From assembly GCA_000004985.1 (NCBI GenBank), contig GG738873.1: 64,000 nucleotides of DNA. One strand, 5' to 3'. Shown here piece after piece: positions 1,368-40,900 of the stretch. The DNA is from Naegleria gruberi. Taxonomy: Eukaryota. Under the pieces are notes generated by a model that was not told the origin of the DNA, made no database searches, and was given only the letters and a program-made list of their open reading frames with translations. Position 1 is the first letter of the stretch; every line of letters starts with the position of its first letter. The position numbers and the translations under genes were made by a program.

Positions 1368-4046
1368 ATGAAAAAACAACACAACAGCAAGGTGAGAAAA
1401 TCCATGAATCCCTCCTTGTTATCTTCTCTCTTGCCAACACCAACAGCATCATCAACAACTGAAGATATTTCTGAGGAGCCAACAGATTCCTCTCCTATTA
1501 GAGAAACAACAACAACAAGAAGGAGAAATAATCATGCAACAGTAGTATTGGCAATTGATGAGGAGGAGAATGATAATGATGATGAGGAAGTAAATGATGA
1601 AATTGGATTATCCATTGCAAAGAGTGAGATTTCCCTCCGAACACTTCCAATGATTAATTCAATAGAAAAGGATTTTTCCGATGATGATGAAGATGATGCA
1701 GATGAAGCCTTTGATGATTTGAATGAAGAAGAAGAAACTCTATTATACTATCGGAGGGATGACACTGTGAGTGAGGATTCATCTACTGGAGCAGCTGCTT
1801 CCTCTGCTATCAATGGAGGATTTAATTCATCATCAAACAATGCTACTAGAGGAGTCTCTAATCCTCTTCTCGTAACATCAGAAGCAACAAATCCAATTCT
1901 TAATTATGGAACTGAAAAGAAGAAGAAAAAGAAGAAGAAGAAGAAGAAATCAGACAAGGCCAAATTGGATTTACAATTCATGATTCGGTTTTTCAAAATA
2001 ATTGGATATTGTCTGAGGGATATTGGATATAATAGTGATTATCATTGGACTGATGAGAATGGAAGAAGAGTTTCCAGATTGTTTTCAAGAAAACGAGTCG
2101 TGCATGAATTGAATCAATCAGAGAAGAAGGGATGTGGAGCATTTTGTTACAACTTTTCATTGTTTAACGTGTTTTTGGTGGTTCTCTTCTTGCTTATTTG
2201 CATTGGAGAGATTTTACTGGGAAATGAAGTTGGTAAATTACCTGGAGCTTTCTATACTGTAATTATTGATGCGAGTTCTAAGAATTTTGGAGATGCCAAA
2301 CCATTTATTCATGTCATGTTGACAAGTTTACTTTGGATTTGTGGAATAACAGCTCTGAAAACTTTTAGACAATTTATTTTGGATGTTATTCGAGTTTATT
2401 GGAGAAGAAATTTAACTTATCATACACAGAGGAGATATTTCGAGAATAGTAACTTTTACAAAATGTTGTTACTTGATAAGAGAATTGATAATCCAGATCA
2501 AAGAATTACCAAAGATGTAGAGAATTTTGTAGATATGACTTGTAAATTAATTGAGAGTGTTTTCACAGGACCAATCACTGTATTTTACTATACTGTCACT
2601 GTGTTTATGAATTTGGGTTGGCAAGGGCCTCTTTTCTGCTTTGTCTTTTTCATTATTGGTTCCATTTGTAACAAGTTGATTATTTCACCAATTGCTAATT
2701 TGTGGTTTATTCAAGAAAAGTTTGAAGGAAATTTCAGATATACTCATGCATTGTTAAGATCAAATGCAGAGTCTGTTGCCTTCTATGGAGGAGAATCAAA
2801 TGAAAAGATCAAGTGCAATCAAAAGTTGAAAGGAGTAATCAAGAATAGAAGAAAGATTGTTGTGTGGAATTTACTCTTGAATGGAAATATGAATTTATTT
2901 GGTTATGTTGGAAGTATTTTGGCATATGTGATTGTTGCCATTTCTGTATTCTTGATTGGTGGATTTATTGATGCCAATGCTACAGCAGGTGAAATTGCTG
3001 GCAAGATTTCTGTTGTAAGTATTCTTGATTGTGTAAATTAACATGTGCAGTCTTCATTCCAAGTAATGATGCTCATCTATGGTTTTACCACCTTCATTCA
3101 GACTGGTGCTAATATTTCAGAACTTGCTGGTTTTACTGGAAGACTCGGTGAAATGTACGAAGTGATGAATGAAATTGAGAAGGATACTGAATTGAATAAT
3201 ATTGGAAAGGTTACTGAGGAACACTCACTTTTGGAATCAACAACATCCAATAATAATTATCAACAAGAATCGGATAGATCTGGATCCACCGATACTAACG
3301 ACGTGAACTATATTGAATTTAAGAACGTCTCTGTATCTGTTCCAAAAGGTATCAGAGAAAAGTACAGAACCAATCACAACCTTGTTGAAAATCTTAGTTT
3401 CAAGATTTTACCAACTCAACACACTTTAATTGCAGGTCCTAGTGGTTGTGGTAAATCATCAGTTTTAAGAATTTTGGCAAATTTGTGGCCAAACAACTCT
3501 GGACAAATTATCAAACCGTCCACAACTCTTGGAAACAGTTCGAAACCAAATATTTTCTACGTTCCTCAAAACCCTTACATTTCCAGTGGTTCGCTAAGGG
3601 ATCAAATTACTTACCCACTCAAAACTCCAAAGAGAAATGTGGAAGATCATCCAGCTCTCTTAGAAGCCATTCAGCAGTCTCGACTCGAATATATTCTCGA
3701 ACGAGTTCATAAGAAGGATTGGGATGGTGAGTGTAATTGGAATGAATTGTTGAGTCCTGGAGAGAAGCAACGTTTAGCTCTTGCTAGAATCTTTTATCAC
3801 AAACCTAAATTTGTAATTCTCGATGAAGCAACCAGTGCTTGTGATGTAAATGTTGAAGAGATGATTTATCGTGACATTATCAAACAAGGATCTACAGTCG
3901 TTTCAGTTGGCCATCGTCCAACCATTGTGAAATTCCACACTCACATGCTTAGACTGAATGGATCAGCCTCAACTTTGGAAAATGCTAAAGGATGGGAATT
4001 TGGAGAAATTTCAGAATTCAGAACGAAAAAGAAGAAGAATTATTAA
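1368..4046 (+). CDS. abcD: peroxisomal-type ABC half-transporter (ABCD subfamily); exons 1368..3014 and 3051..4046 joined across a 36-nt GTAAGT..CAG intron
   Basis: Two ORFs (1368..3041, 3045..4046) join in frame once the intron 3015..3050 (gtaagtattcttgattgtgtaaattaacatgtgcag) is removed. The product has a TM domain with an EAA-like loop, a Walker A box (GPSGCGKSS), an ABC signature (LSPGEKQRLALAR) and a Walker B box (FVILDEATSA). It also has a long acidic/poly-Lys N-terminal extension. Confidence 0.85.
1918..1948 (+). repeat. (AAG/AAA)n coding microsatellite (poly-Lys K12) in the ABCD N-terminal extension
   Basis: The tract gaaaagaagaagaaaaagaagaagaagaagaagaaa encodes EKKKKKKKKKKKK. Confidence 0.6.
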
Positions 4047-5020: not shown

Positions 5021-6244
5021 CTACCAGTAGATCAAATGAGTTATTTTCCTAATTTCTTCAAATTCTATTAGACATTCCTCAAAATTAGCAATAAATTCAT
5101 TAGATTCTGAATCGTCAATTCGATCCACGAGTCGATCGACCTTCTTTACAAGATTCTTGACCTTCACTTTATCTTCTTCTTGGAATAGTTTGCTTGATAT
5201 TCTATTGAGATGAACAATTTCCTCTTGTAAATTATAAATCAAGCCAATAATACCCAATTCTTCACTCCAAATTTTTCTAAATTCATTCAGAGAAATCATT
5301 TCATCCTCAATTGGATACAGAAGATAACTTCCAAGTCGATGGTTCTTAAAAAGCAATTTGAATAATCTTGATTGACCACTTGGAACCAAAACTCCCAATG
5401 TAATATTCGTTTCAATAGTTCTGTGTGCATATTCCAACCAATATTTCAAATTCACATTCAATTGAGAGATTTTTGAATCACTCAATAGAATATTTTCCAA
5501 AACCGATGGGTGTATTTGATCCCTAATTGAGATTTCAAGAATTTGCCTATCTTTTGAGTTATAGACATGTCCAAGTCTTAATTTGTAATATTCACAGTCG
5601 ATTTCTTCTAGATTAGGCAATAAACTGATGATTGGATTGAAAACCTCTTGGAAATCAAAGGAAGGAAATGAAATGAACATTTTGGTGATTGTTCTGAATT
5701 CACTAGGAATTGCTGGTTGTCTAAGTTTCAAGTCAAATGTCAATTTCATTGTTTCTATTAGAGGATTTAATTCTCTGTTTTCTTGAAGGCAATCCTTTAG
5801 GTATGAAATATCACAGGCAATGAGTTTCTGGATTATTTCTTTGTTTTTCTTTGACTGGAACAAATCTTTCACATTCAAAGTTATTGATCCAATGTGTTCT
5901 TTCAAACGATCATTCAAAGTTTTTTTGGAATCAGTTTCTTCTTGAATGACAGCAGTTTTCTCAACTTGAATTTCTGGTAATTTTTCTTCCACCTCCTTAT
6001 CAACTATTTGCTCAGCTTCATTCCCATGTCCAATCAATTCCAATTCCTCTTCATGTTGGGCAGTTATTGTCTGTTGTTTGGATTCGATAGCACAACCAGA
6101 TAAGCCATGATTGGAGAGATCAAGAGTTTGTGTCTCCTTTTGATTTGTGGCAGGAGAACAACGTGCGTGAAGATAAACTTTATAAATCCAGAGGAACAGT
6201 TGAGGATCTTGCGTAATTTGTGAAAAGAGTGTGTCTGTTGCCAT
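5021..6244 (-). CDS. hypothetical protein (407 aa)
   Basis: Long minus-strand ORF with an A-rich ATG context (caaaaaaaATGgc). I recognised no domain. Confidence 0.55.
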   Translation of the reverse strand: MATDTLFSQITQDPQLFLWIYKVYLHARCSPATNQKETQTLDLSNHGLSGCAIESKQQTITAQHEEELELIGHGNEAEQIVDKEVEEKLPEIQVEKTAVIQEETDSKKTLNDRLKEHIGSITLNVKDLFQSKKNKEIIQKLIACDISYLKDCLQENRELNPLIETMKLTFDLKLRQPAIPSEFRTITKMFISFPSFDFQEVFNPIISLLPNLEEIDCEYYKLRLGHVYNSKDRQILEISIRDQIHPSVLENILLSDSKISQLNVNLKYWLEYAHRTIETNITLGVLVPSGQSRLFKLLFKNHRLGSYLLYPIEDEMISLNEFRKIWSEELGIIGLIYNLQEEIVHLNRISSKLFQEEDKVKVKNLVKKVDRLVDRIDDSESNEFIANFEECLIEFEEIRKITHLIYW

Positions 6245-7526
6245 TTTTTTTGTTTTTTGAAAACGTGATGCATAAGAAATACTTCTAATAGCTTTCTAAT
6301 GAATTGTAAGCTCGCTAATTTGTGAATTGAATTCCAAAACAGTTTTGACATTGAGCAACTCAAAGAGCTGAAACAAAATAGCAGAGTTTGGAATATGAAA
6401 ATAAAGGTGAAGAAATTATTGAGGTTAGTGAAAGTGGAAATGAAGTTTAAGGGGTTGAAAGTGTAGTGAGATCATGGAGAAGATGATGAAGAGGAGATTG
6501 GAAGAAGAAATAAAGGGGAGTAACGTTGAATAATTTCTATGATTTCTTTTCAATTAAAATCACATGATAGTGAGAATGCTGTGTCATGCTTGTTGTGTAT
6601 TTTTTGTAGAAGTAAAATAGTAGCGCGATATTTTACCGTTAAATTTTTAAAACAAAAACAAGCACAACACCCAATTCGTGTTGATGAAGTAATTTTTAAA
6701 AACCAAGAAAGACATCATCTACAAAAGCAAAAAAACAATCGGAAAAAGAACATGAAGAATTAGTAACTCTTCTTCCAGAAGCAGTCTTGCTGTATTTTCA
6801 TTGATTTGATGAAATTGTTTTCCCTCTTCCTAACATATGTATCTTTTTGGTAACTGTCAATATAGTTCATTGTGAGTTGCATTCTTCAGCAGCATCCTAA
6901 AATGTCATCAAATTGTTTTATACAACAACAAGTCTCAATAATAATAACACAACCATCACTCTATTAATATTTTCAACAATCATCATCAACAAAAAACCTT
7001 AACTGTACCTGTTATATTTGCAATTCATTCCATTTGTATCAAGTGACACGAATTATCTTAAGCACACAACTGCTTATTGAATTCATCCACTTAATGCAAT
7101 AACAATAACAGAATTGCATTTCCATCTACCCTTCACATTGTGTTTCTAAAGAGGGCCTTCTAAAATAATAAGTATGCGACTCAATGTAAATAATTCTATC
7201 ACAACCCTTATGGACATGAGTATGTATTGTAAACAAACAATCGGAAATGTTATCCAAAACAAAGATATTTAAAAGCCCGATTTCTGAATTTTGTTTCCAC
7301 TGTCTAAGGATGGTATGAAAGGGGATGTTCATTTCTTGGAACATTTGGGTAACCTACTACTTATTCGAAAGTGACACCGATGGTTGTCGTGCCGCAAAGA
7401 GTTTGTTCGTTTGCAATAACTCTGATTTGTTTTGGCTCTTGATTCAGGTGGGCCGATTTCGAATAACTATGGGGACAAGGATGTTTGGGAAGAAACATCT
7501 TTCAAAAAAAACTCTGTACACTAAGA

Positions 7527-10500
7527 ATGCCTGAAATTCTTGGCAATACAACCCACGCTAAACATGCTGTGGGATTTAACGTATCCCTCTTGGTAAGTTT
7601 CGAATAGAGAACATCTTTACTAATATTTCAATAATTAACAGAAAGGTGGTACTATTACTCAAACGATTGTAAGTTGTTTCCAATAGAATCAATGTTTTCA
7701 AACCATTCAGATTGGTGCAATTATCACAGGTTTAGTTGTTGCATCAACTGTTGCTACTATTATTCTCGTTTCTGTTGGTGTTGGTTACTCTAGTCCAGGT
7801 AAGTATTTCAGTGTTGAATTAGGCTGGTTTATTCTTGCTATTTTATGTTTTCCTCACATGCCTTCCTCTGGTGCGCTGTTAAATCGTGTTATCTCTCCAA
7901 ACATTGTTGATGTTCTAAAACATTCGAATAGTTGCCAATCCTGACACTGCCACAACATTCAAGCGTGTTGCTGTTACTCTTGATGTTTTGGCCAATGACA
8001 AAGATCCACGTGGTGGTAATCTTACTTTAACCCAAATTGTTGTTTCTCCTGCACATGGTACCGCAAAGATTGTTTCCAACTCCAAGATTGTTTATCAATC
8101 AAATGGAGCATTCTCTGGTAATGACACTTTCAGTTATGAAGTTACAAATTCTTTCATGACTGCAAATGCAACTGTAACTGTACAAGTATTGAATAGAGCT
8201 CCAGAAGCTGTTCCAATTACTAAAACTGTCTCTAAGAATGTCAAGAATAGTTTGATTGACATTTTTAACTTTGTTGGTGATAATGATCAAAAGATTAGTG
8301 ATCCAGATTCTGATGTATTGTATGCTGTTTCTTATGATGGTAGAAAGATTTTGAGTGGAAACTCTGATTCTTTTGGTTCCATTACTGTTGATCCATATAA
8401 TGGTTATTACTATACTCCTGTAGATGGTTTTAATGGAGTTGAACAATTCAATTATACTATTAGTGATGGTAATGATACTTCCACTTCCACTATTACATTG
8501 ACTATTGCCAATGACGCTCCAGTTGCAGTTGACAATGTCTATAACGTTCCAAAGTATGGTAGCATGGTATTGGATGTCTTGTCCAATGACTATGATATCA
8601 ATGGTGATGATTTCAATATTTCAAGTGCTGCTGGTACTGGTTACGGAGCTATTGCTGTTGACAAGAAGTTTATTACCTATATTACCTCGAGTACTCGTAC
8701 TAAGAAGTATTCTGATTCTTTCGAATACACCATCTCTGATGGCAATTTGGAAGCATCCGCTATTGTAATTGTCAATGTTTACAATTCTGCCCCAACTGTT
8801 TACTCCAAGACTGTTATTGTTGCCAAGAGCTCTGTTAACAATCTCATTACTGTAGATTACAATGATCCAGATCGTAAGGATTTGGTTTCTTTGAGCCGTG
8901 TTACTCCTGCTTTGGCTTCATTGTCCCCTGCTGCTTCATTGTTGGTTACAACCACCTATGAAAATGTCTTTTTCGAATGTTGTGAATGGATCAAAGTTGA
9001 AACCAATAATTATACTATTAGTTTCACTCCAGTTGCCAATACTGTCTATACTCAAACTTTAACTGTTACCATGACTGATACCGAAGCTGAAGGTACTGGT
9101 ATTATTACTATTATTGTTCAAAATACTCCTCCAGTTGCTGTCTCTGATTCTGCTGAATGTAATAAGAATCAACAAGTCTTGATTAATGTTGTTGCCAATG
9201 ACTATGATCAAAATAGTGGAGACACTGCCTTAATTCAATTGTCAGCTGTTGGTTGGACTAGTGCCACAACAAAGGGTGGTTCTGTTCAACTTTACAATAC
9301 CACACATGTCTTGTATACTGCTCCAAGTAATTTCTTGGGTGATGATGTTGCTACCTATGTCATTACTGACCAAAGTAAGGATGCTCAAGGTAATCCAGAT
9401 TCTACCAGTTATTCTAAAGGTACTATTAACATTAAGGTCATTAATAATCCACCAACTCCTGCTGATGATACCATCACCATTTCAAAGGGTGTAACTTCTT
9501 CTTTGAATGTTTTGGACAATGATTCTGATCCAAATGATGGTGCTTCATCTGTTTATACTATTAATTCTGTTTCTGCTTCTTCAATTAAGAATATTTTGGC
9601 TACTATTCAAAAGACTAGTGGTGCAAAGGATACCTTGTCTTATACTGCTAACAATGAAGAATATACTGACAAGCTCACTTATGATGTCACTGATCAAGAC
9701 GGCATGACCTCCACCTATAAGGCTACTGTTACTTTGAATGTTATTAACAATGCTCCTGTTGCTAAAGATGATACCTATTCTACCAAGTGGAATAGATCTG
9801 TTGAATGTTCTGTTAAGGATAACGATGAAGATATTAACGGTGATTTGGCCAAGTCCACAATTTCCATCACTTCTAATCCATCTAATGGTGCTGCTTTGGT
9901 TGTTGGTGATAAGATTGTTTATACTCCATCTAATGGATTCGTTGGAACTGACTCATTCAAGTACAAGTTGAATGATGGTAGTTCTGCAAATGCTGATTCT
10001 AATAGTGCTACTGTTACTATTACTGTAACTAATACTGCTCCAGTTACTGTTGCTGATTCTGCCACTACTCACTGGAATAATCCAAATGGTATCTTGGTTA
10101 GTCCATTGACCAATGATAATGATCCAGATGGTGATGCTCTTGTTGTTGTTTCTGCTTCTTCTGATTCTTCAGCTGGTGTTGCTTCAGCTGTCGATTCTCA
10201 AACTGTTAAATTTGTTCCAAACACTGTCTCTGCCACCACTGGTACTAAACAAGTCACCTACTATGCTTCTGATTACAATATGCAAACTGCTGGAACTATC
10301 AATGTTCAAGTTACTAATACCAAACCAGTTGCCAATGCTGACTCTTATACTCTTCACTGGGCTGCTTCTACTACTCAATTGAGTGTCTTGTCAAATGATG
10401 CTGATGCTGATAATGATGATCTCTCAGTTGGAAGTGTTAGTGGTAGTTCTGCTGCTGTTAACAGTGGTTCATCAATCACTTATACTCCAAAGAAGGATGG

Positions 10501-13500
10501 TGTTACTGATATATTCCAATATACTGCTACTGATTCAGTTACTGCTTCTGATGCTGCCACTGTTACTGTCAAGTTCACTAACAATGCTCAACCATCTGTC
10601 AGTGATTCCTCAACCACCATTCACTGGAGAACTTTTGCTTCTCAAAACAATCAACAAGATTTCACCGTTCTCAACTCTAACACTGATGCTGATAGTGATT
10701 CTCTTTCATTGACTGTTGGCGCTTCTGCTACTGGTATTTCTGGAGCTTCTTGTATCAAGACTAGTGATTCTGTTCCTAAGGTTAGAGTTACTGCTCCAAC
10801 CAAGACTGTTGGTACTGCCTCTTGTACTTTCACTGTTTCTGATGGCTTAGCTTCAAGCAGTGCCAAGACCTCTGTTGTCATTACTAACAATGCTCCAACA
10901 TGTAGTGATATTACTGTTTCATTCAATCCAAGTTATATTTCATCTGGTCAATCTTTCTCAATTGCTTCATCTGTAACTGATGCTGATTCTAATGATATTC
11001 CATATTTGGTTCCAGGAAGTGCCATCATTGTTGGTTCTACTTACCCAAGTGATAGTTTCCAAGTTTCTGGAAGTAATTTGTTATTCAAACCAATGGCTAC
11101 TGTTGGTGATCGTAATTATGCTTACACTGTTACTGATGGCGTTTCTACCTCTGCTCAATGTGCCTTCAAGATTGTTGTTAGCTCAGTATCTTCCAGCGAT
11201 TATGCTCAAAGCTTTGATGTTCATTGGGCTGCCACCTCTGTCAAGCTCGATATTTTGGCCAAATTGACCACTTCAACAATTGTTCGTTTGGGTTCTACCG
11301 CTGCTTCTGGTACTGCAACCATCACTGGTGGGATTCTCTATTTCACACCATTGAGAAAGATCTACGTTGACACTTTCACTGTAATTGTTGCTGATTCAGG
11401 AAATGTTGAAAGCACTGTCACTGTCACAGTTTCAACATTCAACAATGTTCCAACCGCTAGTCTTGCCACTCAAACTATCAATTGGGGAACTTCCAAGACT
11501 ATTGACCTCTTGGTTAATTATGCTGATACTGACTATACTAATGGTCTCGAATCTAAGGGAACAGTTAGTAGTATTGATAAGACATCTCTCAGTACTAAGG
11601 GTACTGTTTCTGCTCTATCAGGTAGCTCTGTTACTTATTCTGCTCCAGCCAATTATGTTGGTACTGATAGCTTTAAGGTTACTGCTACTGATGGTTTGGC
11701 TACTGTCACATTCACTGTCACTTTTAACATGATCAATACTGCTCCAGTTACAAACACTAAATATTTCAGTATTCACTGGGCTACTCACAAGGCTGGTTAT
11801 TCAATGAATTTGGCAACTGATGTCACTGATGCTGAAGGAAATACCTTAACTTATTCTGTTACTCCATCAAGTATTTCACCATCCACTGCTGGTACCGTTG
11901 CTATGGGAACTTCACCAAATGCTGTTGCCACTGGTCCATCAAGTGCTTACTTGGGTAAATTCTCATTCACTTATTCTGCCTCTGATTCTATTGCTACAAC
12001 TCCTGGTACCGTTCAAGTTACTGTTTACAATAACATGTCCACTCCAGTTGCTGACTCTAAGGATGTTCACTGGAAGGCTACTGGTATTACTCTTAGTCCA
12101 TTTGCCAAGTTTGCTCCAACCTTTAAGGATGCTGATGGTGACAGCTTGTCATTTGTTAGTGCTTCAGCTCAAAAGGGTACTGTTAGTACTGGAACAACCA
12201 CTTTAACTTACAATGCTCCTGGAAATGCCATTGGTGCTGATGTTGTCTCTTACAAATTCACAGATGGTGCTGAATCTCTCCAAAATGCTGCCACAATCGT
12301 CAATATTAATCTCTTCAATACTGCTCCACGTGCCATTGATAAGACCGCTAGTGGCAAATGGAGTTCAACAATTACAGTTGATTTGAGCAGTTCTTGTGTT
12401 GATGATGATTCTTTGGATACTGCTACTTTCAATGGAGCTGTTTCAAGCATTGTTGGTGGTACAACTTCTGTTTCTGGAAAGAGTGTTTTATATACTCCAA
12501 CTAGCTCACTTACTTATACTGGTTCTAATGGTGTTTATACTGCTACTGGTTCATTCAAATTCCAATGTACTGATGGTTTGTCAACTGCCACTAATCCTGG
12601 AACTGCTACCATTACAGTTACTAATAATGCTCCAACTGGTACTGGAAAGAGTACAAGTATTAATAGAGATTACACAAAGACTACCTATGATTTCACTTGG
12701 GCTGATATTGCTACTGTTTCTGATGCTGATGGTGACTCTATTTCATACATTAACTTTGCCTCTTCTGATGCTGCAATCACCGTCTCTAATATTGGAACTG
12801 GTATCAGATTGACCACTTCAAACAAGTTTGTCAATGGTGCCAAGTCTATTACCTTCAAGCTTAATGATGGTCTTCATGACAGTGTTTCACAATTGACTTT
12901 CACTGTTACCTTTGTCAACTCTGCTCCAGTCTGTGCCTCTAACTCTATTACTTTGAATAAGAAGGATTCAATTGATCTCTCTACATTGTTCTCTGCAACT
13001 GATTCTAACAATGATCCATTTACTTATGCTTTGACTAGCTCAATTTCCACTGATTTTGGTACAACAGTTGGTACTGTCTTTACCGCTTCAGCAACCCGTA
13101 GTGGTGCCACTTCTGTTACTTACACTGCCACTGATACTCTTGCTACCAGCACTGCCTGTACTATTTCAGTAACTATTAACAATAGAGCTCCAGTTGCTGA
13201 TGACATTTCCTATCAAGTTGTTCCAGTTGCCAGTTCATATGTTCACTCTTACACCTATGTTGCTACTGATGCTGATTCTGATACTTTGACCTATACTGCC
13301 ACAAGTAATGATTGTGTTTCTCAAAATCTTGCCACTACTCTCACAATCTCAACTTCAGGTGCCATCACCTTCACCAGAAAGTCAACTGCAGTTTCTGGAA
13401 GTTGTAAACTCTACATTACTGTTACTGATAACAATCAATTGACCAATGCTCAAGATACTGCCACTATTACATTTGTTATCTCATCAACTTCACCAATTGC

Positions 13501-14662
13501 TAAGGACGACAGATTTGAAATTAACCAAGGTCAAACTATTAGAATTTTCGCAAGTCAAATCTTGGCCAACGATCTCGATGAATTCAATTCCACATCCACT
13601 CTTACTCTCACCAGTATTTCATGCCCAGACTCGACCTATTGTCACAAGACTCCAAGACAAGTTACTTACAATGGTTTACCAGCTGTTGAACTCGATTCTG
13701 ATTCTTCTACTTGTCAAGCTGATAAATTCAGATATGCCATGACAACTGGTATGGGTGCTGTCAGATATGCTGACGTCTATGTCGAATTTAAGAATTGTTA
13801 CTGTGCTGCCAAGATTGACTTTGTCTTTTTACTCGATTCCTCCAAGTCAATTGGTTCAACTAACTTTGATTTGATGAGAGATTTGTCCAAGAGAATTACT
13901 GGTAGAATGAAGATTGCTGACGATGCCATTAAGGTTTCCATTGTCAAATTCCACAACAATGGTACATTGGCTTTGAAACTCTCCTCTGATGGTACCTTAA
14001 TTAATAGCACACTCACAACTATGTCCTACGAGGCGGGAAGTACGGCTCAAGTGCCCGGACTCAGAGTTGCTGTTGATGCTTTGAGACCTGCCAATGGTGG
14101 TAGAGCTGATGCTGACAAGGTTATTTATATTTTAACTGATGGATTGGCAAACGTTCCATGTTCATGTACCTCTTGCAGAAATGAATGGCAAGCAAAGCCA
14201 TCAGTCTTTTACAATTCAATTCAAGTTAATATTTTAGGAAAGTACACTGGAAATACCTTGAATTCTCAATTGGACAATTTATGTGCTTACAAGTATACTG
14301 ATACTTCAGTTTTGAATGGACAAACTTGTTCATACTGTTCCTCAAGTAATTATGCCTATTGTTTACCATGTGCTGATGCTGTTCCAATTGCTTCAAAGAT
14401 TAATAGTTGGAAGCGTAATGCTAGTGGAGTTGTTCCAACTGATCTTGATAATCCTTACAATGGAAACAATGCTGTTCAATGGAAGATTGTTGCTATGGCT
14501 GTAGGTGATGCCATGTCAAATGTTTGGGGAGCCAGACAAATCCAAGGTATGAATTATGATTCCACAAGAGCTATGACTGTTTCTTGGACTGACTTGTCTT
14601 CAACTATGAGTGAAATTGTCGATCAATCTTGTAATCAAGTCACAACTACTGCTGCTGCTTAA
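7527..14662 (+). CDS. giant type II membrane protein: N-terminal signal-anchor, ~18 tandem cadherin-like/VCBS-like repeats, C-terminal vWA domain; exons 7527..7592, 7642..7668, 7711..7798, 7932..14662
   Basis: The 2224-aa ORF (7988..14662) starts at TTG and is open upstream to an acceptor at 7931. Three short upstream exons (66, 27 and 88 nt) with GTAAGT donors and CAG/TAG acceptors encode MPEILGNTTHAKHAVGFNVSLL/KGGTITQTI/IGAIITGLVVASTVATIILVSVGVGYSSP, which forms a TM helix. The body repeats ~100-aa units carrying the motifs (V)L(A/S)ND.D.(D/N)GD and Y(T/S)P..(F/Y).G.D.F.Y...DG. The C-terminus has DFVFLLDSSKSIG, a DxSxS MIDAS motif typical of vWA domains. Confidence 0.75.
8000..13500 (+). 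repeat. tandem ~300-nt coding repeats (cadherin-like/VCBS-like modules) inside the giant gene
   Basis: The motifs NDxDxDGD, APVAxDD and HW recur about every 100 residues through the ORF. Confidence 0.6.
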
Positions 14663-22328: not shown

Positions 22329-24401
22329 ATGCCATTCTTTGAAGACTTTCTCACCACTCCAGCACGATCAAATAATACCAATCATCAACCAAAGAAAAAA
22401 CCCACATCCACTAATAACAAACAACAACAACAAAATACATCAACAACACAAATGGTCGATGATGTTGTAGAAGTAAATTCCGATGATTCCGATGCCATTG
22501 TTTCATCACCCTCCACTGCAACTCATAAACGAAGGATTCCCAAAGTATTAAATCATACCAAACCCATTGTTGTTATTGATGATAAAGATGAGAGGAGTAG
22601 CAGTGGTGCTGCTGCAATTGTTATTGAAATTGATGATATGACAAAGCCTAAGGTGAAGAGAGAACGTTCGGATGATGTGGTTTTTGTATCATCAAAGAAA
22701 GTGGTGGTGCAATCGACTTTATCGGAGCCTTCAATTGTTGCATCTTATAATAATAATGGAAGCAATAATAGTAATAATATGAATAATATGAATAATATGA
22801 ATAATAGTAGTAGTACTTTATCAAATTCGACAACTACAATGGGCAGTACTGTTGCAGCAATGACACAAGAAAAATCACAATCTAATAATTCATCGATTAA
22901 TAGTGGAGAAAAGAGCAATCATTCCTCTAATAATTTGGAAAGTAATAATTCGAGCCAGTTTTCACAAGTTTCAACGAGTGCTAATAGTGCTATTACTACT
23001 ACTGTCCAGACTACACCAATAGGAAACAATAATTCCAGTAATGGCGTGGCAGTTGTAGGTTCGCCCGATGTCATTGCCAAATTACCAAAACCTAAAATTG
23101 AGGAAAATTCAATAATACCATCATTACAGCAAGCTAATCCTATTGTGAATAATCAACAACAAATGGGAAATGTCAATGCAGATATGAGAAATAATTCGAA
23201 CCCCTCTATAACAAGTGGAAATAATCAAACATCACAACAGAAAGATAACCTCAATCAAGTGACTTTAAAAATTCCAAATAATTCCACACAATCTGTTAGA
23301 ACAGTGAGCCTAACTTCTTCAAACATTCCTCCTCAACAACAGCAAAATATTGCAAAACCAAAAGAAACTATCCCAACAGTACCAACTCCACCTTCTCCAA
23401 TTTTCCAACCCAACCAAAATCCTGTAAATACCAGAATACCAAGCCCTGCTAGCAATGTAACAAATCCTACCAATCAAATTAACAGACCTGTAAATAATAA
23501 TTTAACTATCGAACAACTCACGCAACAAACTCTAATCACAATTGAAAATTTGAAAAGGAGAGTTGAGTTTAGTACTGTGTCATGCCCTGTAACACGAAAA
23601 ATCGTTACTAATCCAGTTTTGGCTAGTGATGGAATTGTATATGATAGAACGTTCATTCTGTCCTACATTTCTGAGCATGGAAGTTATAGCCCTATAGTGA
23701 AAGGATGTAAAATAACTGAGTCTTCTCTCATTAATGTTGATAGCATATATGCAAAGGCTGTATTAATGATTGAGTGTAGAATTTCAAAAATAATTGAAAT
23801 ACTTCAAAGCCCTGATTTTTTAAAGCTAGCTCCCTTAATACCGGAAAATTATTTGGATTTGATTAAGTTTGCTTTGGATTTAATGGCAGAAGGGAAACTA
23901 AATACACCTTCCACACCAAAATTTATTGAATTTTTAAGAAAGAACAAAGCCAAGTTACTATCTCATTACAGTTCCAAGTTGAAACAACAAGGGAGAAACG
24001 ATCAATCGTTGTACATACTTATGGAAAGTTATGAAATGCACAAAATTGGATGCCACTGTGACGATATTGCTTCTGTCATAGTTTCACTTTTGACTGAAAC
24101 TAAGGAACAAAATGTTGTGAATGAGGAAAAGAAAGCAGAATTGATACGAGATCTTTTTACGATTTCAAATTTGTCTCTTCCTAAATTATTGACCTATTTT
24201 AATATTGAGAAAGATTTTGCCATAATATTGGACATACTTTCAGTAATGATCAAACGAAACATGTGTAGATATGAGGCAATTTCAACTTTTATAATTCAAA
24301 CAATAACTGAGATCAATAAGGGAGAAATAGACAATCCATTTTACAAACAAATTTTGTTTTTCAGGGATCAATTAGTGATTTGCAGAAAGGAAATGGAATA
24401 A
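22329..24401 (+). CDS. U-box domain protein (putative E3 ubiquitin ligase) with long Asn/Ser/Gln-rich N-terminal region
   Basis: The U-box consensus appears at VSCPVTRKIVTNPVLASDGIVYDRTFILSYISEHG. The start context is aaaaaaaaATG. Confidence 0.75.
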   Translation: MPFFEDFLTTPARSNNTNHQPKKKPTSTNNKQQQQNTSTTQMVDDVVEVNSDDSDAIVSSPSTATHKRRIPKVLNHTKPIVVIDDKDERSSSGAAAIVIEIDDMTKPKVKRERSDDVVFVSSKKVVVQSTLSEPSIVASYNNNGSNNSNNMNNMNNMNNSSSTLSNSTTTMGSTVAAMTQEKSQSNNSSINSGEKSNHSSNNLESNNSSQFSQVSTSANSAITTTVQTTPIGNNNSSNGVAVVGSPDVIAKLPKPKIEENSIIPSLQQANPIVNNQQQMGNVNADMRNNSNPSITSGNNQTSQQKDNLNQVTLKIPNNSTQSVRTVSLTSSNIPPQQQQNIAKPKETIPTVPTPPSPIFQPNQNPVNTRIPSPASNVTNPTNQINRPVNNNLTIEQLTQQTLITIENLKRRVEFSTVSCPVTRKIVTNPVLASDGIVYDRTFILSYISEHGSYSPIVKGCKITESSLINVDSIYAKAVLMIECRISKIIEILQSPDFLKLAPLIPENYLDLIKFALDLMAEGKLNTPSTPKFIEFLRKNKAKLLSHYSSKLKQQGRNDQSLYILMESYEMHKIGCHCDDIASVIVSLLTETKEQNVVNEEKKAELIRDLFTISNLSLPKLLTYFNIEKDFAIILDILSVMIKRNMCRYEAISTFIIQTITEINKGEIDNPFYKQILFFRDQLVICRKEME

Positions 24402-24419: not shown

Positions 24420-26750
24420 TTATCTATCTGAAGATGAACCAACATTTGATTTTTTCAAAGGTGGCTCAAGAGAAGAAGTAGGGAAAGATGGGAATGGTGA
24501 AGGAGTCCAAGGAGCAAATGGGTTTGATGGAAGAGGAGTCATACCAGGGAAAAGACCAGGGTTCAAAGGGGAAGGATGAGGCATTTGACCCATTTGACTC
24601 ATAGCGTTTGACATATCTGCAACAGGCATTGGTTGCATTCCATGATAGCCTAGAGGAGTCATAGGTTGATGATGGTGATGAACTGTATGAATTGATGGTT
24701 GTTGTTCATGTGCTTGAAGGCCAAACATTTCAATCTTATTTCTATTAAATCCACATTGGAAGAAGAAGTGATTGTCTTTTTCTAACCATTTCTTTTCTTC
24801 GATATCAAGTTGAATATCAGGATCCATGAATTTTGCTTGACACTTTCCCTTGATACTAACCAAAGGACCATAGTGCATATCTTCATGAGTAAGGAAGATT
24901 TCCTTTTCACATGGATAATCATGATGTTTTCTACATTTTGATTGGTTTGTTGCTTCTTCGATATTACATCCAAATCCTTGTAAATCACTCCATCTGTAGT
25001 ACCATTGCCCAACAAATCTCATTTCATCATTCTTTGTTTGAACAAAGTTTACAATTTTACAAACCCAATATTTTTCGATATCTTTTCTTTCATCAAGAGC
25101 CTCGTCCTTATCTTGTCTATCCTCTGAATCACAATCCTCAGGAGAGACAAAAACTATATCGTTAACTCGGTAAACAATTCCATCCTTCAATAAATGAGCA
25201 TAAAAATAGTCTCCATTATCATTTAATCCAACAGGTTCACCTAGCCAAGACATTCCTGAACTCATTGGATAAAGTTGTGCATTTGGATCGTGAGAAGAAT
25301 ACATTTGAGGCATATGATTTGGGAACATTGGAAGGAATGGATTATACATCATATTCATATCATTCATTGGCCATGGATTGGCATTAGGATCAATATATGG
25401 ATTTGGAGCATACTGGTTAATCATTTCTCCTTCCTCAGGTTGAGTTTCCTTTTTTCTCTTTTTTGTTGTTGATCCCTTTTTTGTTTTTTTACCTGTTTGT
25501 TGTTTTGGTGAAGTACAACCTGTAGTAAATTTTGAGTAATCAACTTTTGTTGTAGTGGTACAGGCCTTTGTTACAACCTTAACTGTTGGATTGAGAGGCA
25601 TTGGTTGATTCAAATATTTGGAAATGTTAGCATCCTTTTTCACAAAAGTTTTGAATTCAGCAGAGAAAATTGTAAAATGATAATCATCAGATGAGTCTGT
25701 TGGGGTGTACTTTACACAAAGTCTGAAAGGCATATATTGAAATCTCTTTGAACAATATAAACTATTGATACCAAAACGTATTACAATTTCTTCATCTGAT
25801 GATCTATGTAAACTAGAAATATTAATAGTAGATTTGTCTTCTGACTTTTTAGGTTGGGAAGATCCTTTCTTTTTTGATACAGTTGCCTTCTTTTTCTTTG
25901 AACTTGTTTTACCATCAGCAACTGGGGAAGTAGGATCTTCTGGGAAAACAGGGATACGATCATTATATCCCATTACAAGAAACATATCAATTCCTTCCAT
26001 AATTTTAACTTGATTCTTTCCAGCAAATATCTTTTCACTACAAACAATTCTAACATCATACTTATGTTTCCATGTAAGTGTATAAAGTACTTCTGGGAAT
26101 TCTTCTGTGAATGTGGTGTGCCTAGAACCCTTAACAAACAGTCTAACATTAAATGTTGGAGCATGTGGGTTATGTTGTTGTTGGTGAAAATGTTCGGAAA
26201 CTGTTGTTCCTGAATTAGGAAGATTAGGTTTTTCATCTTGATCACTTGGGATACAGTATTGACTCCAATCCAATCTTGTTCCGACACTGATGCAATCAGT
26301 TACATAATGTTCATATACTATTGGTAAGTGGTATTTCAAAGCATGGTTAATTCTTTCTTTGTCATGATTGTTAGAGTTAGGAGTTATAAGTATATTAACT
26401 TTTTCATTTGGAGCATCAAAGAATTGACCTCCATTAGAAATAATTTTAAACTTTAAATCTTCAAGATGTGGATCTAAAAGAGCCTGAGAAAAACAGACAA
26501 GAAACCCTTCGAATATCTTTTCTTGAAGCCCAAAATGGGAGTTATACATATCATTAGTTGTCTCTGCAGCTGCTTGAACAATTACATGTTGGTCAGTTGC
26601 TGTAGCAGAGTAATCATTATGTTGTTGTTGGTTTAATCCCTCCGAATTATCTAAAATAAAACCTTGGTTATATGATGATGATTGTTCTGATGACACTGAT
26701 TCATCATCGGTTCTTTCATCGTCTTCAGTCTTAAAATTTGTAATGTTCAT
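24420..26750 (-). CDS. BRCT + BAH domain chromatin-associated protein
   Basis: The N-terminus has a BRCT-like fold (FEGFLVCFSQALLDP...LPIVYEHYVTDCI). The C-terminus has a BAH-like segment (GDYFYAHLLKDGIVYRVNDIVFV...YWVCKIVNF...RFVGQWYYRW). Pro/Met-rich tracts are also present. Confidence 0.75.
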   Translation of the reverse strand: MNITNFKTEDDERTDDESVSSEQSSSYNQGFILDNSEGLNQQQHNDYSATATDQHVIVQAAAETTNDMYNSHFGLQEKIFEGFLVCFSQALLDPHLEDLKFKIISNGGQFFDAPNEKVNILITPNSNNHDKERINHALKYHLPIVYEHYVTDCISVGTRLDWSQYCIPSDQDEKPNLPNSGTTVSEHFHQQQHNPHAPTFNVRLFVKGSRHTTFTEEFPEVLYTLTWKHKYDVRIVCSEKIFAGKNQVKIMEGIDMFLVMGYNDRIPVFPEDPTSPVADGKTSSKKKKATVSKKKGSSQPKKSEDKSTINISSLHRSSDEEIVIRFGINSLYCSKRFQYMPFRLCVKYTPTDSSDDYHFTIFSAEFKTFVKKDANISKYLNQPMPLNPTVKVVTKACTTTTKVDYSKFTTGCTSPKQQTGKKTKKGSTTKKRKKETQPEEGEMINQYAPNPYIDPNANPWPMNDMNMMYNPFLPMFPNHMPQMYSSHDPNAQLYPMSSGMSWLGEPVGLNDNGDYFYAHLLKDGIVYRVNDIVFVSPEDCDSEDRQDKDEALDERKDIEKYWVCKIVNFVQTKNDEMRFVGQWYYRWSDLQGFGCNIEEATNQSKCRKHHDYPCEKEIFLTHEDMHYGPLVSIKGKCQAKFMDPDIQLDIEEKKWLEKDNHFFFQCGFNRNKIEMFGLQAHEQQPSIHTVHHHHQPMTPLGYHGMQPMPVADMSNAMSQMGQMPHPSPLNPGLFPGMTPLPSNPFAPWTPSPFPSFPTSSLEPPLKKSNVGSSSDR

Positions 26751-27021: not shown

Positions 27022-28128
27022 TTACCACTCTAGAGATTTATCTTGGGATGGCTTCTTATCTTGTGGTGTTGAGGCAGCATCTGTTTGAGATGAAGATGAT
27101 GATTGTTGTTCAATCTCTTTGGCCATTGCTTCTCTACCTGCTCTTGCTTGACCATGAGATGAGTATAAAGTAATTCTGGCAGTACCCTTGTTAAGACCTT
27201 CAAGGAAGACACATGCTCTACACAATTCTTGACTACTAATATAACCACACTTGACACAGTTCATCAAAGTTCTCTTTTTTACAGTGGAATCCTCTGAGAT
27301 TGTTTCATTGGTAAATTCAAATTGTTCAGCAGATTTAACAATATCAATAATTGTTTGAGGTCGTAATTGTTCCAAATCCTTGATAAGTTCTCTAGCATGT
27401 CCTCTGTAAGCATTTGGAGAATAAGAGCACTCAGTACTAAAGTAATCTAATTTCTTAAAATAGGCGTAGAGAACAATTTCCTTTTGATAAGTATACTTGA
27501 ATGGTTTGGCTCTTGGAATGCTAAAACCTCCTTCATCATGTGTAATAATATCAACACATCGTTCAAGTCTTCCAATATCTCCTCTAAGAATATTCATCAA
27601 AACAGTTTCAGCAATATCATCGGCATTGTGACCAGTTACCATCTTGTCAACCTTTAATTGTTCACATCCTCTATCAAGTGCTTGTCTTCTGAAAACTCCA
27701 CAGAATGTACAGTTATTCTTCAATCCGATTTGTTGAACAATTTCATCCATTGACCATCCATATAATTCTTTATAACTTAAAATTTTGAGAGGTACTTGAT
27801 ATTGCTCTCTATTTCTTTTAACTGTTTCTAAACTATCATCTCTATAACCTTTAATACCTTCATCAATACTCAACAAGTATAAATCCAATCCGTAATTATA
27901 TCTTTCATTCAAAACTTTCATAATATGTGCCAACGCTGTAGAATCCTTTCCACCACTAGCAGCAATAGCAACCTTATCTCCAGGTTTAAATAAATTATTA
28001 TTAATAATAGTTTCATGAATTTCCGTCTCGAACAAGTCAAAGAAACATTCCCTACAAATGAGGGCTCCGTTCTTTGGTCTTTTAAGTGCTGCGTTTCTAG
28101 AGTTGCAGTTTGCACAAGGCTTTGGCAT
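27022..28128 (-). CDS. ctu1: cytoplasmic tRNA 2-thiolation protein 1 (Ncs6/CTU1)
   Basis: It has a PP-loop SGGKDS and CxxC zinc-finger pairs (CANC...CREC; CVKCGY...CRAC), with full-length similarity to Ncs6/CTU1. Confidence 0.9.
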
Positions 28129-33949: not shown

Positions 33950-34858
33950 ATGTCCAATTTATTCAATAAAGTAAAGAAGCTTGTCTCATCAGCAGCATCG
34001 ACAATATCGGGATCCTCAACAAGAACATTCGTTGGAAAAGATATCAAGGGAAATAGCTATTTTTTGGAGGTGGATACAGGAAAGGAGAAGAGAACTGTAG
34101 AGTATTCTAAAGGCTATGATACCTCTGCTTTGCATTTACCTCAAGATCTTCCATTGGAGTGGGTTTCGTGGTTAAAGTATTTACGTGAAAAACCACCAAC
34201 AGAAAAGGAATCCAAGATTTTGGCTGATTATAGAGAAAAATTAAAAGCAAATGGAGAAAAGTGGGATGAAGAACAAAGAAGACTCTTTTTACAAAATCAA
34301 GCAAATGAGGGAAATGCTAGAAATAATATTAGGAGTGAAAATGAAAATTATAGACCAAGTGATACACCACCATCTTTCCAATTTGTTGCAGATCGTCTCA
34401 AAGAAGAGGGAAAACTCTCTAATGAAGCTGCCACTTTGACAGAAGAATTTGAAGGTGGAGACAAGTCACAAAATGTAAGACTTTCAAAGATGTTATCTGC
34501 AAGTGGAGAATTGAAATCAACCTATTCAGCTAAGGAAATGGAACAATTGAGGAGAGGATCTAAAATTGCACAATACGAGGAAGAGCAAGCCAAATCAGAA
34601 AAAGATCCATTTGCTCATCTCATTCCAGATGCCAGATATAAGAGAAATCGTACTGATGAAGATGTTCAACAACTTCTTAACCAAGCTGCTGAAGAATTTG
34701 ATTTACCAAAGGATATGAGAAATCCATCCAATCTCACTCAGGAACAAATCAGAAATGTATCCAAACATTACTCAAAATCTAGAACTAGTCCTTTCCTTGG
34801 TAAGAAACCACAAGTAAGAGCCAATTCTGGATTTGTAAATAATGAAGAAGAAAAGTAA
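33950..34858 (+). CDS. ndufaf2: NDUFA12-family protein, NDUFAF2 (mimitin)-like complex I assembly factor with acidic C-terminal extension
   Basis: It shows VGKDIKGNSYFLE...PLEWVSWLKYLREKPPTEKE, matching the GxDxxGNKYYE...W..W...R..PPT.EE signature. Confidence 0.65.
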   Translation: MSNLFNKVKKLVSSAASTISGSSTRTFVGKDIKGNSYFLEVDTGKEKRTVEYSKGYDTSALHLPQDLPLEWVSWLKYLREKPPTEKESKILADYREKLKANGEKWDEEQRRLFLQNQANEGNARNNIRSENENYRPSDTPPSFQFVADRLKEEGKLSNEAATLTEEFEGGDKSQNVRLSKMLSASGELKSTYSAKEMEQLRRGSKIAQYEEEQAKSEKDPFAHLIPDARYKRNRTDEDVQQLLNQAAEEFDLPKDMRNPSNLTQEQIRNVSKHYSKSRTSPFLGKKPQVRANSGFVNNEEEK

Positions 34859-37977: not shown

Positions 37978-40900
37978 TCATCTTCTCCTTCTTCTTAATT
38001 GGTCAAAAACTGAATTATTCAAAATATCCTGTGCTTGAGGTCTGATGGCACTGTCCTTTTCCAACATTGATAAAGTCAAGTCAATGATATATTGAGAATA
38101 TTGACCAGGCTCTTCCATTTTCTTCTTTAATAATTGTGAAACTTCCTTTTGATCCTTAGTGACATAGAGTTGACTAATTGATGTAAAAGTGTCCTTAGTT
38201 ATTATTTGATAAATAGTTACACCTAAACTGTAAATATCAGTGTTATAGAAATACTTGCCACCATATCCCAATTCTTTAAAAAACAATTTAAAATTAATGT
38301 CAGTTATCTCTTAATTACTTACCAGGTGACATGAATAGAGGAGTGCCAGCATATGAATTATTGGTAGAACCTTGATTTGCTTTGGCCAATCCAAAATCTG
38401 CAATAACTATTTCAATATTATCCTTATCTAAACTCTTTACAAAAATATTGGATGGTTTGATATCTCTGTGGATGAGTTTCATTGAGCTGTGAATATAATC
38501 AAGAGCGCTACACATTTGGAAAATGATTTGCAATAATATCTGTTCTGAACATGTAGAATCATCTTTGGTCAATTGAACCAAATCTCCCAATTCATAAAAG
38601 TCCATATCAATACACAACAATTGATCCTTACTAATAAAAAAGTCATTAACCTTAAGAATATTTGAATGGTGAATATTCATCAATTGAGTTCCTTCCTTCA
38701 TAAAATTATTCAACTCCTCTGTTGATGTGTATTTGATTACTTTGATTGCCTTCATGGTGTTTGTTTTGGAATCAAAAGCTTTGAATACTGAACCAAAGGC
38801 ACCTTGACCAATTTTAACCAAGTCCATATATCTTGAGAGTGGATTGAAGGATTGACTGCTACCTCCAGTAGATGAGATACTAGTGAGAGGAGTCAAAAAC
38901 ATACTGGCATCTGATGGGAAATCACTTGATTGACCAAGCTCAATATTTTGAATAGTTTGAAGTTCGTACGCTTTTTGAGATTTTAATTTCCAAACACAAA
39001 CTGAAAATACCACTACAATAATAGCTATGATAATTATTGCAATCAACACAACTGGAATTGTAACACCAAGGATGATACCAAGAGTTTGATCATCAATGGA
39101 TCTGGGAATTGAGTTAGAAACATTAGGTGCATAATAATAAGCAAGTTCTTGAACTGTGAATAGAGATAAGTGATTAGTGACACATTCCAAATTGAAATAG
39201 AGTTTACCTTCCTCTCTTTTGACAATTGTCATTGATTGAGTCAAAATACCAGAATTAGACCAAGTTTGTTTCACTGAATCATAGTAACTGCATGAAATGT
39301 TAGTATCTGTCTTGTCATTTGTAAACAAATTATTGAACTTGATTGAAATTGGTTTTGTAAGGCCACTGACAGGTACTTGAGCTCCACTTTCTTGACTATA
39401 AATGGATAATTCAAAAATTGGTCTATTTTCAAGAATGTTATTTAGTGTGGTATCCTTCTTGATCAATGAAGAGCTGTAGAATAATTTGACATTGTTTGGA
39501 ATACTTAATTGAGAAGTAAAATCGGATGGGAAACTGGCCGAAACTTGAATAGTATCTTCAATCATTATAGAAATTTCCTTTCCATTCAATTGAGTTTCCA
39601 AATCCAGACTTTCAAGTGAATAAGTCCCCAATGTATTATTCGTAGTCAACCCACTCAACAATAAATATTTAACTTGATATCCTACAATGAGTGATTGTTT
39701 CTCTAATTTTGAGGAAAATCTCTTAATCAAAATAGATTGTAAATTTGATAGCTCAGTATAGTGAGTTTCGTCCAATAGAGTTAATCTTAATGCAGAAGTA
39801 TAGTACTGCTTGGATTTGTCCATTCCTGAATAAGTCCAATCAAGCCACTTTACAAGATTATCAGTCATGGAATTGATGGAATTTTCATCTTGTAAAGTGA
39901 GATCGAGAATTGAGAAAATATCACAAATTATTGGAAGGACCATTTGAATAAGTTTTTCATCGACTTTGGATGTCAAACTCTGTACATTATTTAGGAGTGA
40001 TAGCATTTCATTCAAATTGGAGTTTAGAGTTTGAATTTGAGAATTGGAAGTTTCGGTAAACAATCTTCCAGTGAAATTTTCAAAATTAGTTTCGTTTAAA
40101 AGGAGAATTGACATGAGGGAATTAATGGAATTGACAGTTTCAATCTTCAATGGTTCTACTCTTTTTAAAGTATAAAATTGATCATTTACATAATTCAGTT
40201 TAGACGAAATTGAGTTTGTAATCGAATTTGGAGCTTTCATTGTAATTGTTCTTGTAAGCGTTCCAATAGATCCATATCTATTGACAAGTTTTACAACGAG
40301 ATTTAAATCTGAACCATCTCTACTGAGTGGAAGTCTGGTTACAAGGTTTTTCTTTAGAGTGTTGGAAAGAATTGATATTCTTTCTCCTTGTTGAGAATGA
40401 ATTTCCATTACATAATTCGAAACTGGTTCTGAAGGTAAATTGAGACAAGAAATGGTCATGAAGCTTTCGAATGCATAATTAACAGCTTCGTTTCTTAAAT
40501 TGTAATAGGAACATGAAAATCTTGGAGTATTGTCAATTCTTGTGGAAAGTGAAATATTCGATTGACCAAACTCATTCCAAGTTGACAACTCAAATGAATA
40601 AAATTCACCATCAATCAAATATTCATTTCCAATATTCAACTCTGATGTAACAGAATTACCACCAACATTTCTAATGGTTTCTCTATTTCTCAAGAATTCG
40701 TCCACATTCTCACCCACTGCAACATTCAATCTTCCTTCCACCAATTTCCAACTTGTTGTAACACTAGAAGTAGAAGAAATAAGAGTCTTTAAAACCAATG
40801 GACGATGACTAGCATGAATAGGAGGTCTATAAGGGCTACTAAGTTTTGGAGCTTGAATGGATGAATCAGTCAACTTGATAAAACCAATGAAATTGTAAGG

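Follow-up and report, generated by a model that had tools for sequence, protein, structure and literature searches.

The locus at 7527-14662 of a 64,000-nucleotide stretch of Naegleria gruberi DNA (contig GG738873.1; the whole stretch analysed is called the window) raises the question of whether a large open reading frame (ORF) that starts at a TTG codon is a gene in itself or the last exon of a longer one, and what kind of protein such a gene would produce. We conclude that the locus is a genuine four-exon protein-coding gene of N. gruberi NEG-M, with a structure predicted from homology and splice signals. It probably encodes a membrane-anchored repeat stalk with a von Willebrand factor A (vWA) tip that carries a metal ion-dependent adhesion site (MIDAS), which would make the product a candidate adhesion receptor.

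To begin with the gene structure, the ORF list places the large ORF at 7988..14662 on the plus strand (2224 amino acids, TTG start). Its frame is open upstream to 7919, next to a stop at 7916-7918, and an AG is found at 7930-7931. Three short exons precede it, giving the following model:

7527-7592 (+), exon 1, 66 nucleotides (nt): Met1-Leu22, MPEILGNTTHAKHAVGFNVSLL, the first part of the conserved N-terminal tail
7593-7641 (+), intron 1, 49 nt: GTAAGT...TACTAAT...CAG, with in-frame stops if retained
7642-7668 (+), exon 2, a micro-exon of 27 nt: Lys23-Ile31, KGGTITQTI
7669-7710 (+), intron 2, 42 nt: GTAAGT...CAG
7711-7798 (+), exon 3, 88 nt: Ile32-Pro60 plus 1 nt, with the hydrophobic segment IGAIITGLVVASTVATIILVSVGVGY encoded by 7711-7788
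7799-7931 (+), intron 3, 133 nt: GTAAGT...AATAG, phase 1
7932-14662 (+), exon 4, 6731 nt: residues 61-2303 and the TAA stop, with the ORF unbroken

Joined together, the four exons form a 6912-nt coding sequence that is in frame, has its sole stop at the end and specifies 2303 amino acids. The ATG at 7527 is the first in-frame ATG after a TAA at 7464-7466, and the guanine-cytosine (GC) content of intron 1 is 24.5%, compared with 44% in exon 1. The donors at 7593, 7669 and 7799 are all GTAAGT and all three introns end in AG. GTAAGT occurs 13 times on the plus strand of the window; three of these occurrences are the donors, which fall within 207 nt (Poisson P ~3e-5 for such a cluster by chance), and none is located inside the 6.7-kb exon 4. 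Of all the GT..AG junctions that would connect exon 3 with the large ORF in frame, only 7798/7932 combined a consensus donor with kept homology, the sequence that it keeps being the conserved GVGYSSP/VANPD..ATTFKR.

The proposed protein is best matched by four proteins of 2309-2315 amino acids, P0001-P0004, from N. lovaniensis (loci C9374_008469 and C9374_006824) and N. fowleri (FDP41_006209 and FDP41_010565), with 53-56% identity and 100% query coverage. The N. lovaniensis genes were annotated with BRAKER1 and RNA sequencing (PMC6125883). These relatives open with MPE...GFNLSLLKGGTITQTI followed by a transmembrane segment, and the N-termini of P0001-P0004 read MPExITLGSTT..VGFNLSLLKGGTITQTIVGGIITSLVIASTVATIILVSVGVGYSPP. 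The spliced N-terminus aligns with them without gaps over junctions 1 and 2, and exon 4 is colinear with the same relatives. The exon 1 peptide can be aligned to the N-termini of P0001-P0004, P0009 and P0010, and the KGGTITQTI of exon 2 is identical in P0001, P0002, P0009 and P0010. The same N-terminal module was also found in Willaertia magna, in other N. gruberi paralogues, in EukProt species and in environmental sequences. The original prediction, made from the DNA letters and an ORF list, had described a 2224-residue TTG ORF open upstream to an AG at 7931 and three micro-exons of 66, 27 and 88 nt with GTAAGT donors. The ORF list and our inspection of the frame agree with the former, the coordinates and N-terminal peptide of the latter are exactly as first described, and the micro-exon model is supported by homology to P0001-P0004, which span the full predicted protein and match its N-terminal peptide over junctions 1 and 2.

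Very short introns were also seen in an ABC-transporter gene nearby (1368-4046, plus strand), where two ORFs in the same frame, 1368-3041 with an ABC_membrane_2 match and 3045-4046, are separated by a 36-nt GTAAGT...CAG intron (3015-3050) that contains the stop. Because of this intron, we consider very short consensus introns to be normal in N. gruberi.

We considered how the gene relates to other protist genes. The protein carries the N-x-S-L-x-K...Q..G tail followed by a transmembrane segment, is colinear with its relatives over its full length and has a Cys-rich vWA module ending in VDxxCN, the features by which the family is recognized. In an exhaustive profile search, the full C-terminal module was present in at least 26 clusters (50% identity) among the top 150 matches; a match was accepted into the family only if it spanned the profile from end to end, as multi-vWA collagen-VI-like proteins dominate the match list. 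The same anchor is seen in those family members whose N-termini are complete. The family comprises multiple genes that vary in their number of repeats, and a C-type lectin domain (PF00059) is added in P0009, P0011 and P0012. The Naegleria and Willaertia relatives, the N. gruberi paralogues P0007 and P0008 included, share the full architecture, the length, the N-terminal tail with its transmembrane segment and the C-terminal vWA with its Cys-rich insert, whereas the 5′ exon structure is different and further introns interrupt the vWA region of some relatives. The N. fowleri copies, for example, have an additional 103-nt intron where the Cys-rich insert begins, and these differences indicate intron turnover within the family. 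The deposited names of family members are "hypothetical", "VWFA domain-containing" and "tandem-95 repeat" proteins, and we found no relevant literature on the locus tags of the relatives or on Naegleria microexons. The gene is a new member of an uncharacterised, already catalogued protist family and not a new kind of system.

The domains of the 2303-residue protein are arranged as follows:

Residues 1-31: N-terminal tail, conserved in the family
7932-13795 (+), residues ~60-2015: 20 tandem repeats of ~95 residues each, of the tandem-95, Big_9 or bacterial cadherin-like type
13796-14659 (+), residues 2016-2303: vWA (I-domain-like) module, identified with Pfam, the family alignment, AlphaFold2 (AF2) and Foldseek
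14156-14479 (+): Cys-rich insertion of ~108 residues with PCSCxxC...CxPC, directly after the MIDAS TDG loop

To locate a membrane anchor, hydropathy was calculated over the whole protein (Kyte-Doolittle, 19-residue windows, threshold 1.6), and only one stretch, residues 32-57, proved to be hydrophobic. This segment is conserved in the family and accounts for the single transmembrane helix that the 5′ exons had been predicted to encode. Six residues at the N-terminus (N18, S20, L21, K23, Q29 and G33) are invariant in an alignment of 11 divergent family members (alignment A2). Four of them lie in an N18-x-S20-L21-x-K23 stretch at residues 18-23 (window 7578-7647). In P0009, P0010, P0031 and P0041 the N-terminal 60 residues are 53-62% identical to those of the N. 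gruberi protein, compared with 30-33% overall; the higher conservation of the tail and transmembrane segment speaks for a working motif in the cytosol rather than for a leader that is discarded. Outside the anchor, the protein consists of extracellular-type modules with 28 Cys and 17 glycosylation sequons. From this extracellular-type, Cys-rich and sequon-bearing C-terminal part we infer a type II topology, with the N-terminus in the cytosol.

The body of the protein is made up of repeats. A hidden Markov model (HMM) built from the repeats themselves delimits 20 units over residues 59-2015. Pfam Big_9 (PF17963) matched 15 stretches with 429.4 bits (cut-off 23.6, 2e-131) and the tandem-95 repeat model NF012211 of NCBIfam matched 11 stretches with 307.6 bits (cut-off 90, 1e-93); further Pfam matches were obtained with the bacterial-type Cadherin_3, Cadherin_4 and Cadherin_5. 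The protein thus has multiple ~95-residue units scoring above the curated cut-offs for the tandem-95 and Big_9 repeats. Most repeats have an acidic loop, ND-x-D or D-x-D-x-D. Outside the Heterolobosea, the top matches of the full-length protein are all bacterial (25-32% identity). The original prediction had counted about 18 repeats, which the self-built HMM corrects to 20. Its description of them as cadherin-like is right for the bacterial Big_9/Cadherin_4 type recognized by Pfam, but not for the classical Cadherin domain PF00028, which was not matched.

At the C-terminus, Pfam VWA matched residues 2023-2134 with 57.8 bits (cut-off 23.8, 2e-15; profile positions 1-116 of 174). The MIDAS is complete in its DxSxS, T and D residues: D2029 (13835-13837), S2031, S2033, T2098 (14042-14044) and D2130 (14138-14140). 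In an alignment of the last repeat and the C-terminal domain from 16 family members (alignment A1), all five of these residues and at least twelve Cys are invariant, in agreement with the MIDAS-containing vWA domain proposed at first for this end of the protein. The Cys-rich insert is shorter in distant paralogues. An AF2 model of residues 1912-2303 had a mean predicted local distance difference test score of 82 and a predicted template modelling score of 0.73, and placed helices in the insert region, between strands 211-218 and 333-339 of the 392-residue segment. When this model was compared with the Protein Data Bank (PDB) using Foldseek, Mfa5 vWF, MIC2, VWF A3, ANTXR2, collagen VI and integrin I-domains were retrieved with a probability of 1.00. 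A family profile searched against PDB sequences matched collagen VI, PTMP1, MIC2 and the integrin alpha-1 I-domain, with collagen VI and mussel PTMP1 as the best matches. The predicted fold of the vWA module thus corresponds to that of adhesive I-domains.

Taken together, the modules suggest how the protein might work. The hydrophobic segment would serve as an uncleaved signal-anchor that keeps the N-terminus on the cytosolic side and exposes the C-terminus outside the cell, in the type II orientation. The 20 beta-sandwich repeats, probably made stiffer by calcium, would build a long stalk outside the cell and place the vWA domain far from the membrane. There, a divalent cation bound at the MIDAS could bind an acidic group on a ligand, as occurs in integrin I-domains, MIC2/TRAP and the anthrax-toxin receptors, next to an insert that is presumably disulfide-rich. 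Through its conserved 31-residue tail the protein may connect with partners in sorting or in the cytoskeleton. This arrangement suggests a location at the surface, a dependence on calcium and a function in adhesion, and it is the domain content that points to an adhesin. A multigene family with a MIDAS vWA tip on a long stalk would provide concrete, testable adhesion candidates, including members in the pathogen N. fowleri.

Several observations weigh against this account. A one-residue alignment gap to P0001-P0004 is located at or next to junction 3. Reconstruction of the relatives' 5′ exons from the four loci gave exons of 34 and 66 nt at positions other than those of the 66-, 27- and 88-nt exons described here. 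The only 5′ intron position in common with N. fowleri and N. lovaniensis, to within 1 nt, is after ...TQTI (intron 2), and the environmental read-through fragment P0138 runs into an intron right after ...SQTI. Because the 5′ intron positions differ except after TQTI, the junctions are supported at the protein level only. Searches with nine flanking ORFs (tblastn, E <0.2, positive control positive) found no synteny in the 3 kb around the relatives' loci in N. fowleri and N. lovaniensis, and one-to-one orthology is therefore not established. With regard to topology, the invariant N-x-S glycosylation sequon sits without explanation in the presumed cytosolic tail, and the charges flanking the transmembrane segment are balanced, +2/-1 on either side, so the positive-inside rule gives no orientation. 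Finally, the apparent absence of a model from the public N. gruberi annotation is a conclusion drawn from accession numbering and from negative look-ups, both described below.

We weighed other explanations for the locus. It is possible, though we consider it unlikely, that the protein is anchored at the surface with a main job other than adhesion to a substratum, such as a phagocytic or lectin receptor for bacterial prey, or cell-cell or self recognition, with the repeats as the binding units. In bacteria, Cadherin_4 and tandem-95 repeats are modules of adhesins or lectins, the UniRef name of P0005 is "RapA2 cadherin-like domain-containing", and the multigenic nature of the family, its variable repeat number and the C-type lectin domains mentioned above would all suit recognition of prey or self. 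Naegleria also feeds on bacteria (PMC8296547). However, it is the repeats that diverge, whereas the anchor, the MIDAS site and the Cys-rich module of the vWA are invariant, and this pattern suggests that the functional head is the vWA tip.

A second alternative keeps the gene and its domains and takes the hydrophobic segment as a long cleaved signal peptide, so that the 240-kDa product would be secreted as a component of a matrix, coat or cyst wall. The hydrophobic segment is followed by small residues (GVGYSSPVA), its flanking charges enforce no orientation, and collagen VI and mussel PTMP1, which the vWA module matched best in the PDB profile search, are matrix proteins. A "VWFA domain-containing protein", A0A6A5CD16, is among the top 10 in three N. 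fowleri extracellular-vesicle protein lists (PMC9312180), although its mapping to FDP41_006209, to FDP41_010565 or to the family is not established. On the other hand, few parts of the protein are as well conserved across paralogues as the tail and transmembrane segment, and such conservation would not be expected of a leader that is discarded. The hydrophobic stretch is ~26-28 residues long and is preceded by a 31-residue region, and typical cleaved signal peptides are much shorter than this. Secretion therefore seems a doubtful fate for the product, with a probability somewhat below that of a role in recognition, and we favor the signal-anchor.

It is very improbable that the upstream exons are spurious and that translation begins inside the large ORF, for instance at Met136 (window 8156), to give a protein with no membrane or secretion signal. 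There is no ATG near the 5′ end of the large ORF, and the database models P0006, P0008, P0011 and P0012 do begin internally. Against an internal start, residue 60, where repeat 1 begins, precedes Met136, and the repeat shares 64-77% identity with P0001-P0004. It would also make no sense for modules of an extracellular type to lack a targeting signal. We rejected this model based on the residue-for-residue match of the spliced N-terminus to full-length relatives and the enrichment of consensus donors at the exact exon ends.

The repeat type is overwhelmingly bacterial, as are all top matches outside the Heterolobosea (25-32% identity), and a bacterial-like tandem-95 gene has been reported in the amoeba Vermamoeba (PMC7125106), but a bacterial contaminant, or a recently transferred and non-functional bacterial adhesin gene, is hardly credible and was rejected, given that the ORF is flanked on a 461,873-bp scaffold by genes that match N. 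gruberi exactly, has spliceosomal introns and a GC content like its locality, shares a eukaryote-specific architecture with Naegleria, Willaertia and other protists, and keeps a frame of 2243 codons open in DNA of 34-40% GC, a feat that implies selection. If the repeats did come from bacteria, they must have done so long ago.

With the four-exon gene as the preferred model, we asked if it is represented in the public annotation of N. gruberi. Seven genes in the window are exact matches to N. gruberi proteins, all on the one 461,873-bp scaffold:

5021-6244 (-): EFC43542 / D2VI68
22329-24401 (+): EFC43460 / D2VI73
24420-26750 (-): EFC43547 / D2VI74
27022-28128 (-): EFC43548 / D2VI75
33950-34858 (+): EFC43463 / D2VI78
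51511-52332 (+): EFC43464 / D2VI82
54292-55566 (-): EFC43552 / D2VI83

The UniProt D2VI accessions are numbered by position and the EFC accessions separately for each strand. It follows from this scheme that D2VI69-72 are the four minus-strand entries EFC43543-46, and hence that there is no plus-strand model between 6244 and 22329. A full-length search of the protein collection returned no N. gruberi match above 66% identity and hence no self match. The C-terminal 291 amino acids likewise found no self match, in a search that returned short fragments only and missed the known full-length relatives, and the same was true of a search with the N-terminal profile. Exact look-ups of the spliced 2303-residue form, the Met136-start form and the TTG-ORF form in the protein collection were also negative.

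Models of related genes are faulty at the same end. The model of the N. gruberi paralogue P0007 lacks exactly the peptide of the 27-nt exon, those of P0008, P0011 and P0012 begin in or just after the transmembrane segment, and P0005 has a wrong first exon. These cases, along with the apparent absence of a GenBank model for the gene itself, agree with the expectation voiced at the outset that automated callers would miss the 5′ exons. On two environmental contigs, of 11,727 bp (P0018/P0136) and 10,861 bp (P0118/P0134), the anchor is a separate ORF of 93 and 111 amino acids, respectively, that shares the contig with a large repeat ORF, and related uncultured protists thus also seem to split the anchor from the gene body. 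With a 6.9-kb gene of 2303 codons apparently outside the reference annotation, the protein would be invisible to proteomic, transcriptomic and comparative surveys that are built on it.

A second giant ORF was observed on the minus strand of the window at 38315-45298. It encodes 2327 amino acids with teneurin-like NHL repeats, many EGF-like domains, a transmembrane segment and a protein kinase, and an exact match to it is absent from the protein collection. The kinase match ends at profile position 166 of 263, at the end of the ORF, and a further exon must therefore lie below 38315.

We next compared the protein with known systems. A classical cadherin was rejected, as PF00028 is not among the Pfam matches and the transmembrane segment is N-terminal. 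An integrin subunit was rejected because the Pfam scan found no propeller, hybrid or EGF domains, the transmembrane segment is again N-terminal and residues 1-31 contain no NPxY; the only feature in common with integrins is the I-domain fold. The protein shares its repeat unit with the giant adhesin-like bacterial proteins of the tandem-95/Big_9/Cadherin_4 kind (NF012211, RapA2-type), which are long tandem arrays projecting from the cell surface. Unlike these, it is encoded by a eukaryotic gene with spliceosomal introns, has a putative N-terminal signal-anchor in place of bacterial secretion or anchoring modules and ends in a Cys-rich vWA head specific to the eukaryotic family. The vWA of bacterial matches such as P0066 is not detectably close to that of N. 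gruberi.

The vWA module itself resembles the adhesive I-domains of integrin alpha, MIC2, TRAP, ANTXR1/2, VWF A, collagen VI and P. gingivalis Mfa5 in its Rossmann-like fold and its complete DxSxS...T...D MIDAS, with Foldseek probabilities of 1.00 and profile E-values of 1e-14 to 1e-96 at an identity of only 13-24%. It differs from them in the ~108-residue Cys-conserved insert after the TDG loop, and Pfam found no TSR domains in the N. gruberi protein.

Dictyostelium SibA and SibC function in substrate adhesion and have an N-terminal vWA, a Cys-rich region, four bacterial-type repeats and a C-terminal transmembrane segment with GxxxG (PMC9453864). They are type I proteins with a cytosolic NPxY tail that binds talin (PMC9453864). 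Like Sib, the N. gruberi protein would be an amoebal single-pass surface protein that joins a membrane-distal vWA, a Cys-rich region and bacterial-type repeats. Unlike Sib, it is arranged as a mirror image, with an N-terminal transmembrane segment, a C-terminal vWA, 20 repeats and no NPxY in residues 1-31. Membership in the Sib family was rejected because the module order is reversed and NPxY is absent, a separation made from published descriptions of Sib. We suggest that Sib is the nearest functional analogue, by a resemblance that is functional and architectural only.

"Integrin-like" activity has reportedly been seen in N. fowleri. A bolder proposal, which we hold only tentatively and regard as unlikely, is that the family is the heterolobosean counterpart of integrins and Sib and the long-sought receptor by which Naegleria adheres to substrates or host matrix, including this activity of N. 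fowleri. On this view, bacterial tandem-95 repeats and a MIDAS vWA head would have been put together independently into an inverted, type II protein whose invariant 31-residue tail is linked to actin. The adhesion factors of Naegleria have been said to "remain mysterious", and Sib orthologues were not found in Naegleria (PMC8296547, Herman et al.). The gene described here would add a further case beside Dictyostelium Sib of an amoeba joining bacterial-type repeats to a vWA domain, in this instance with the mirror-image topology.

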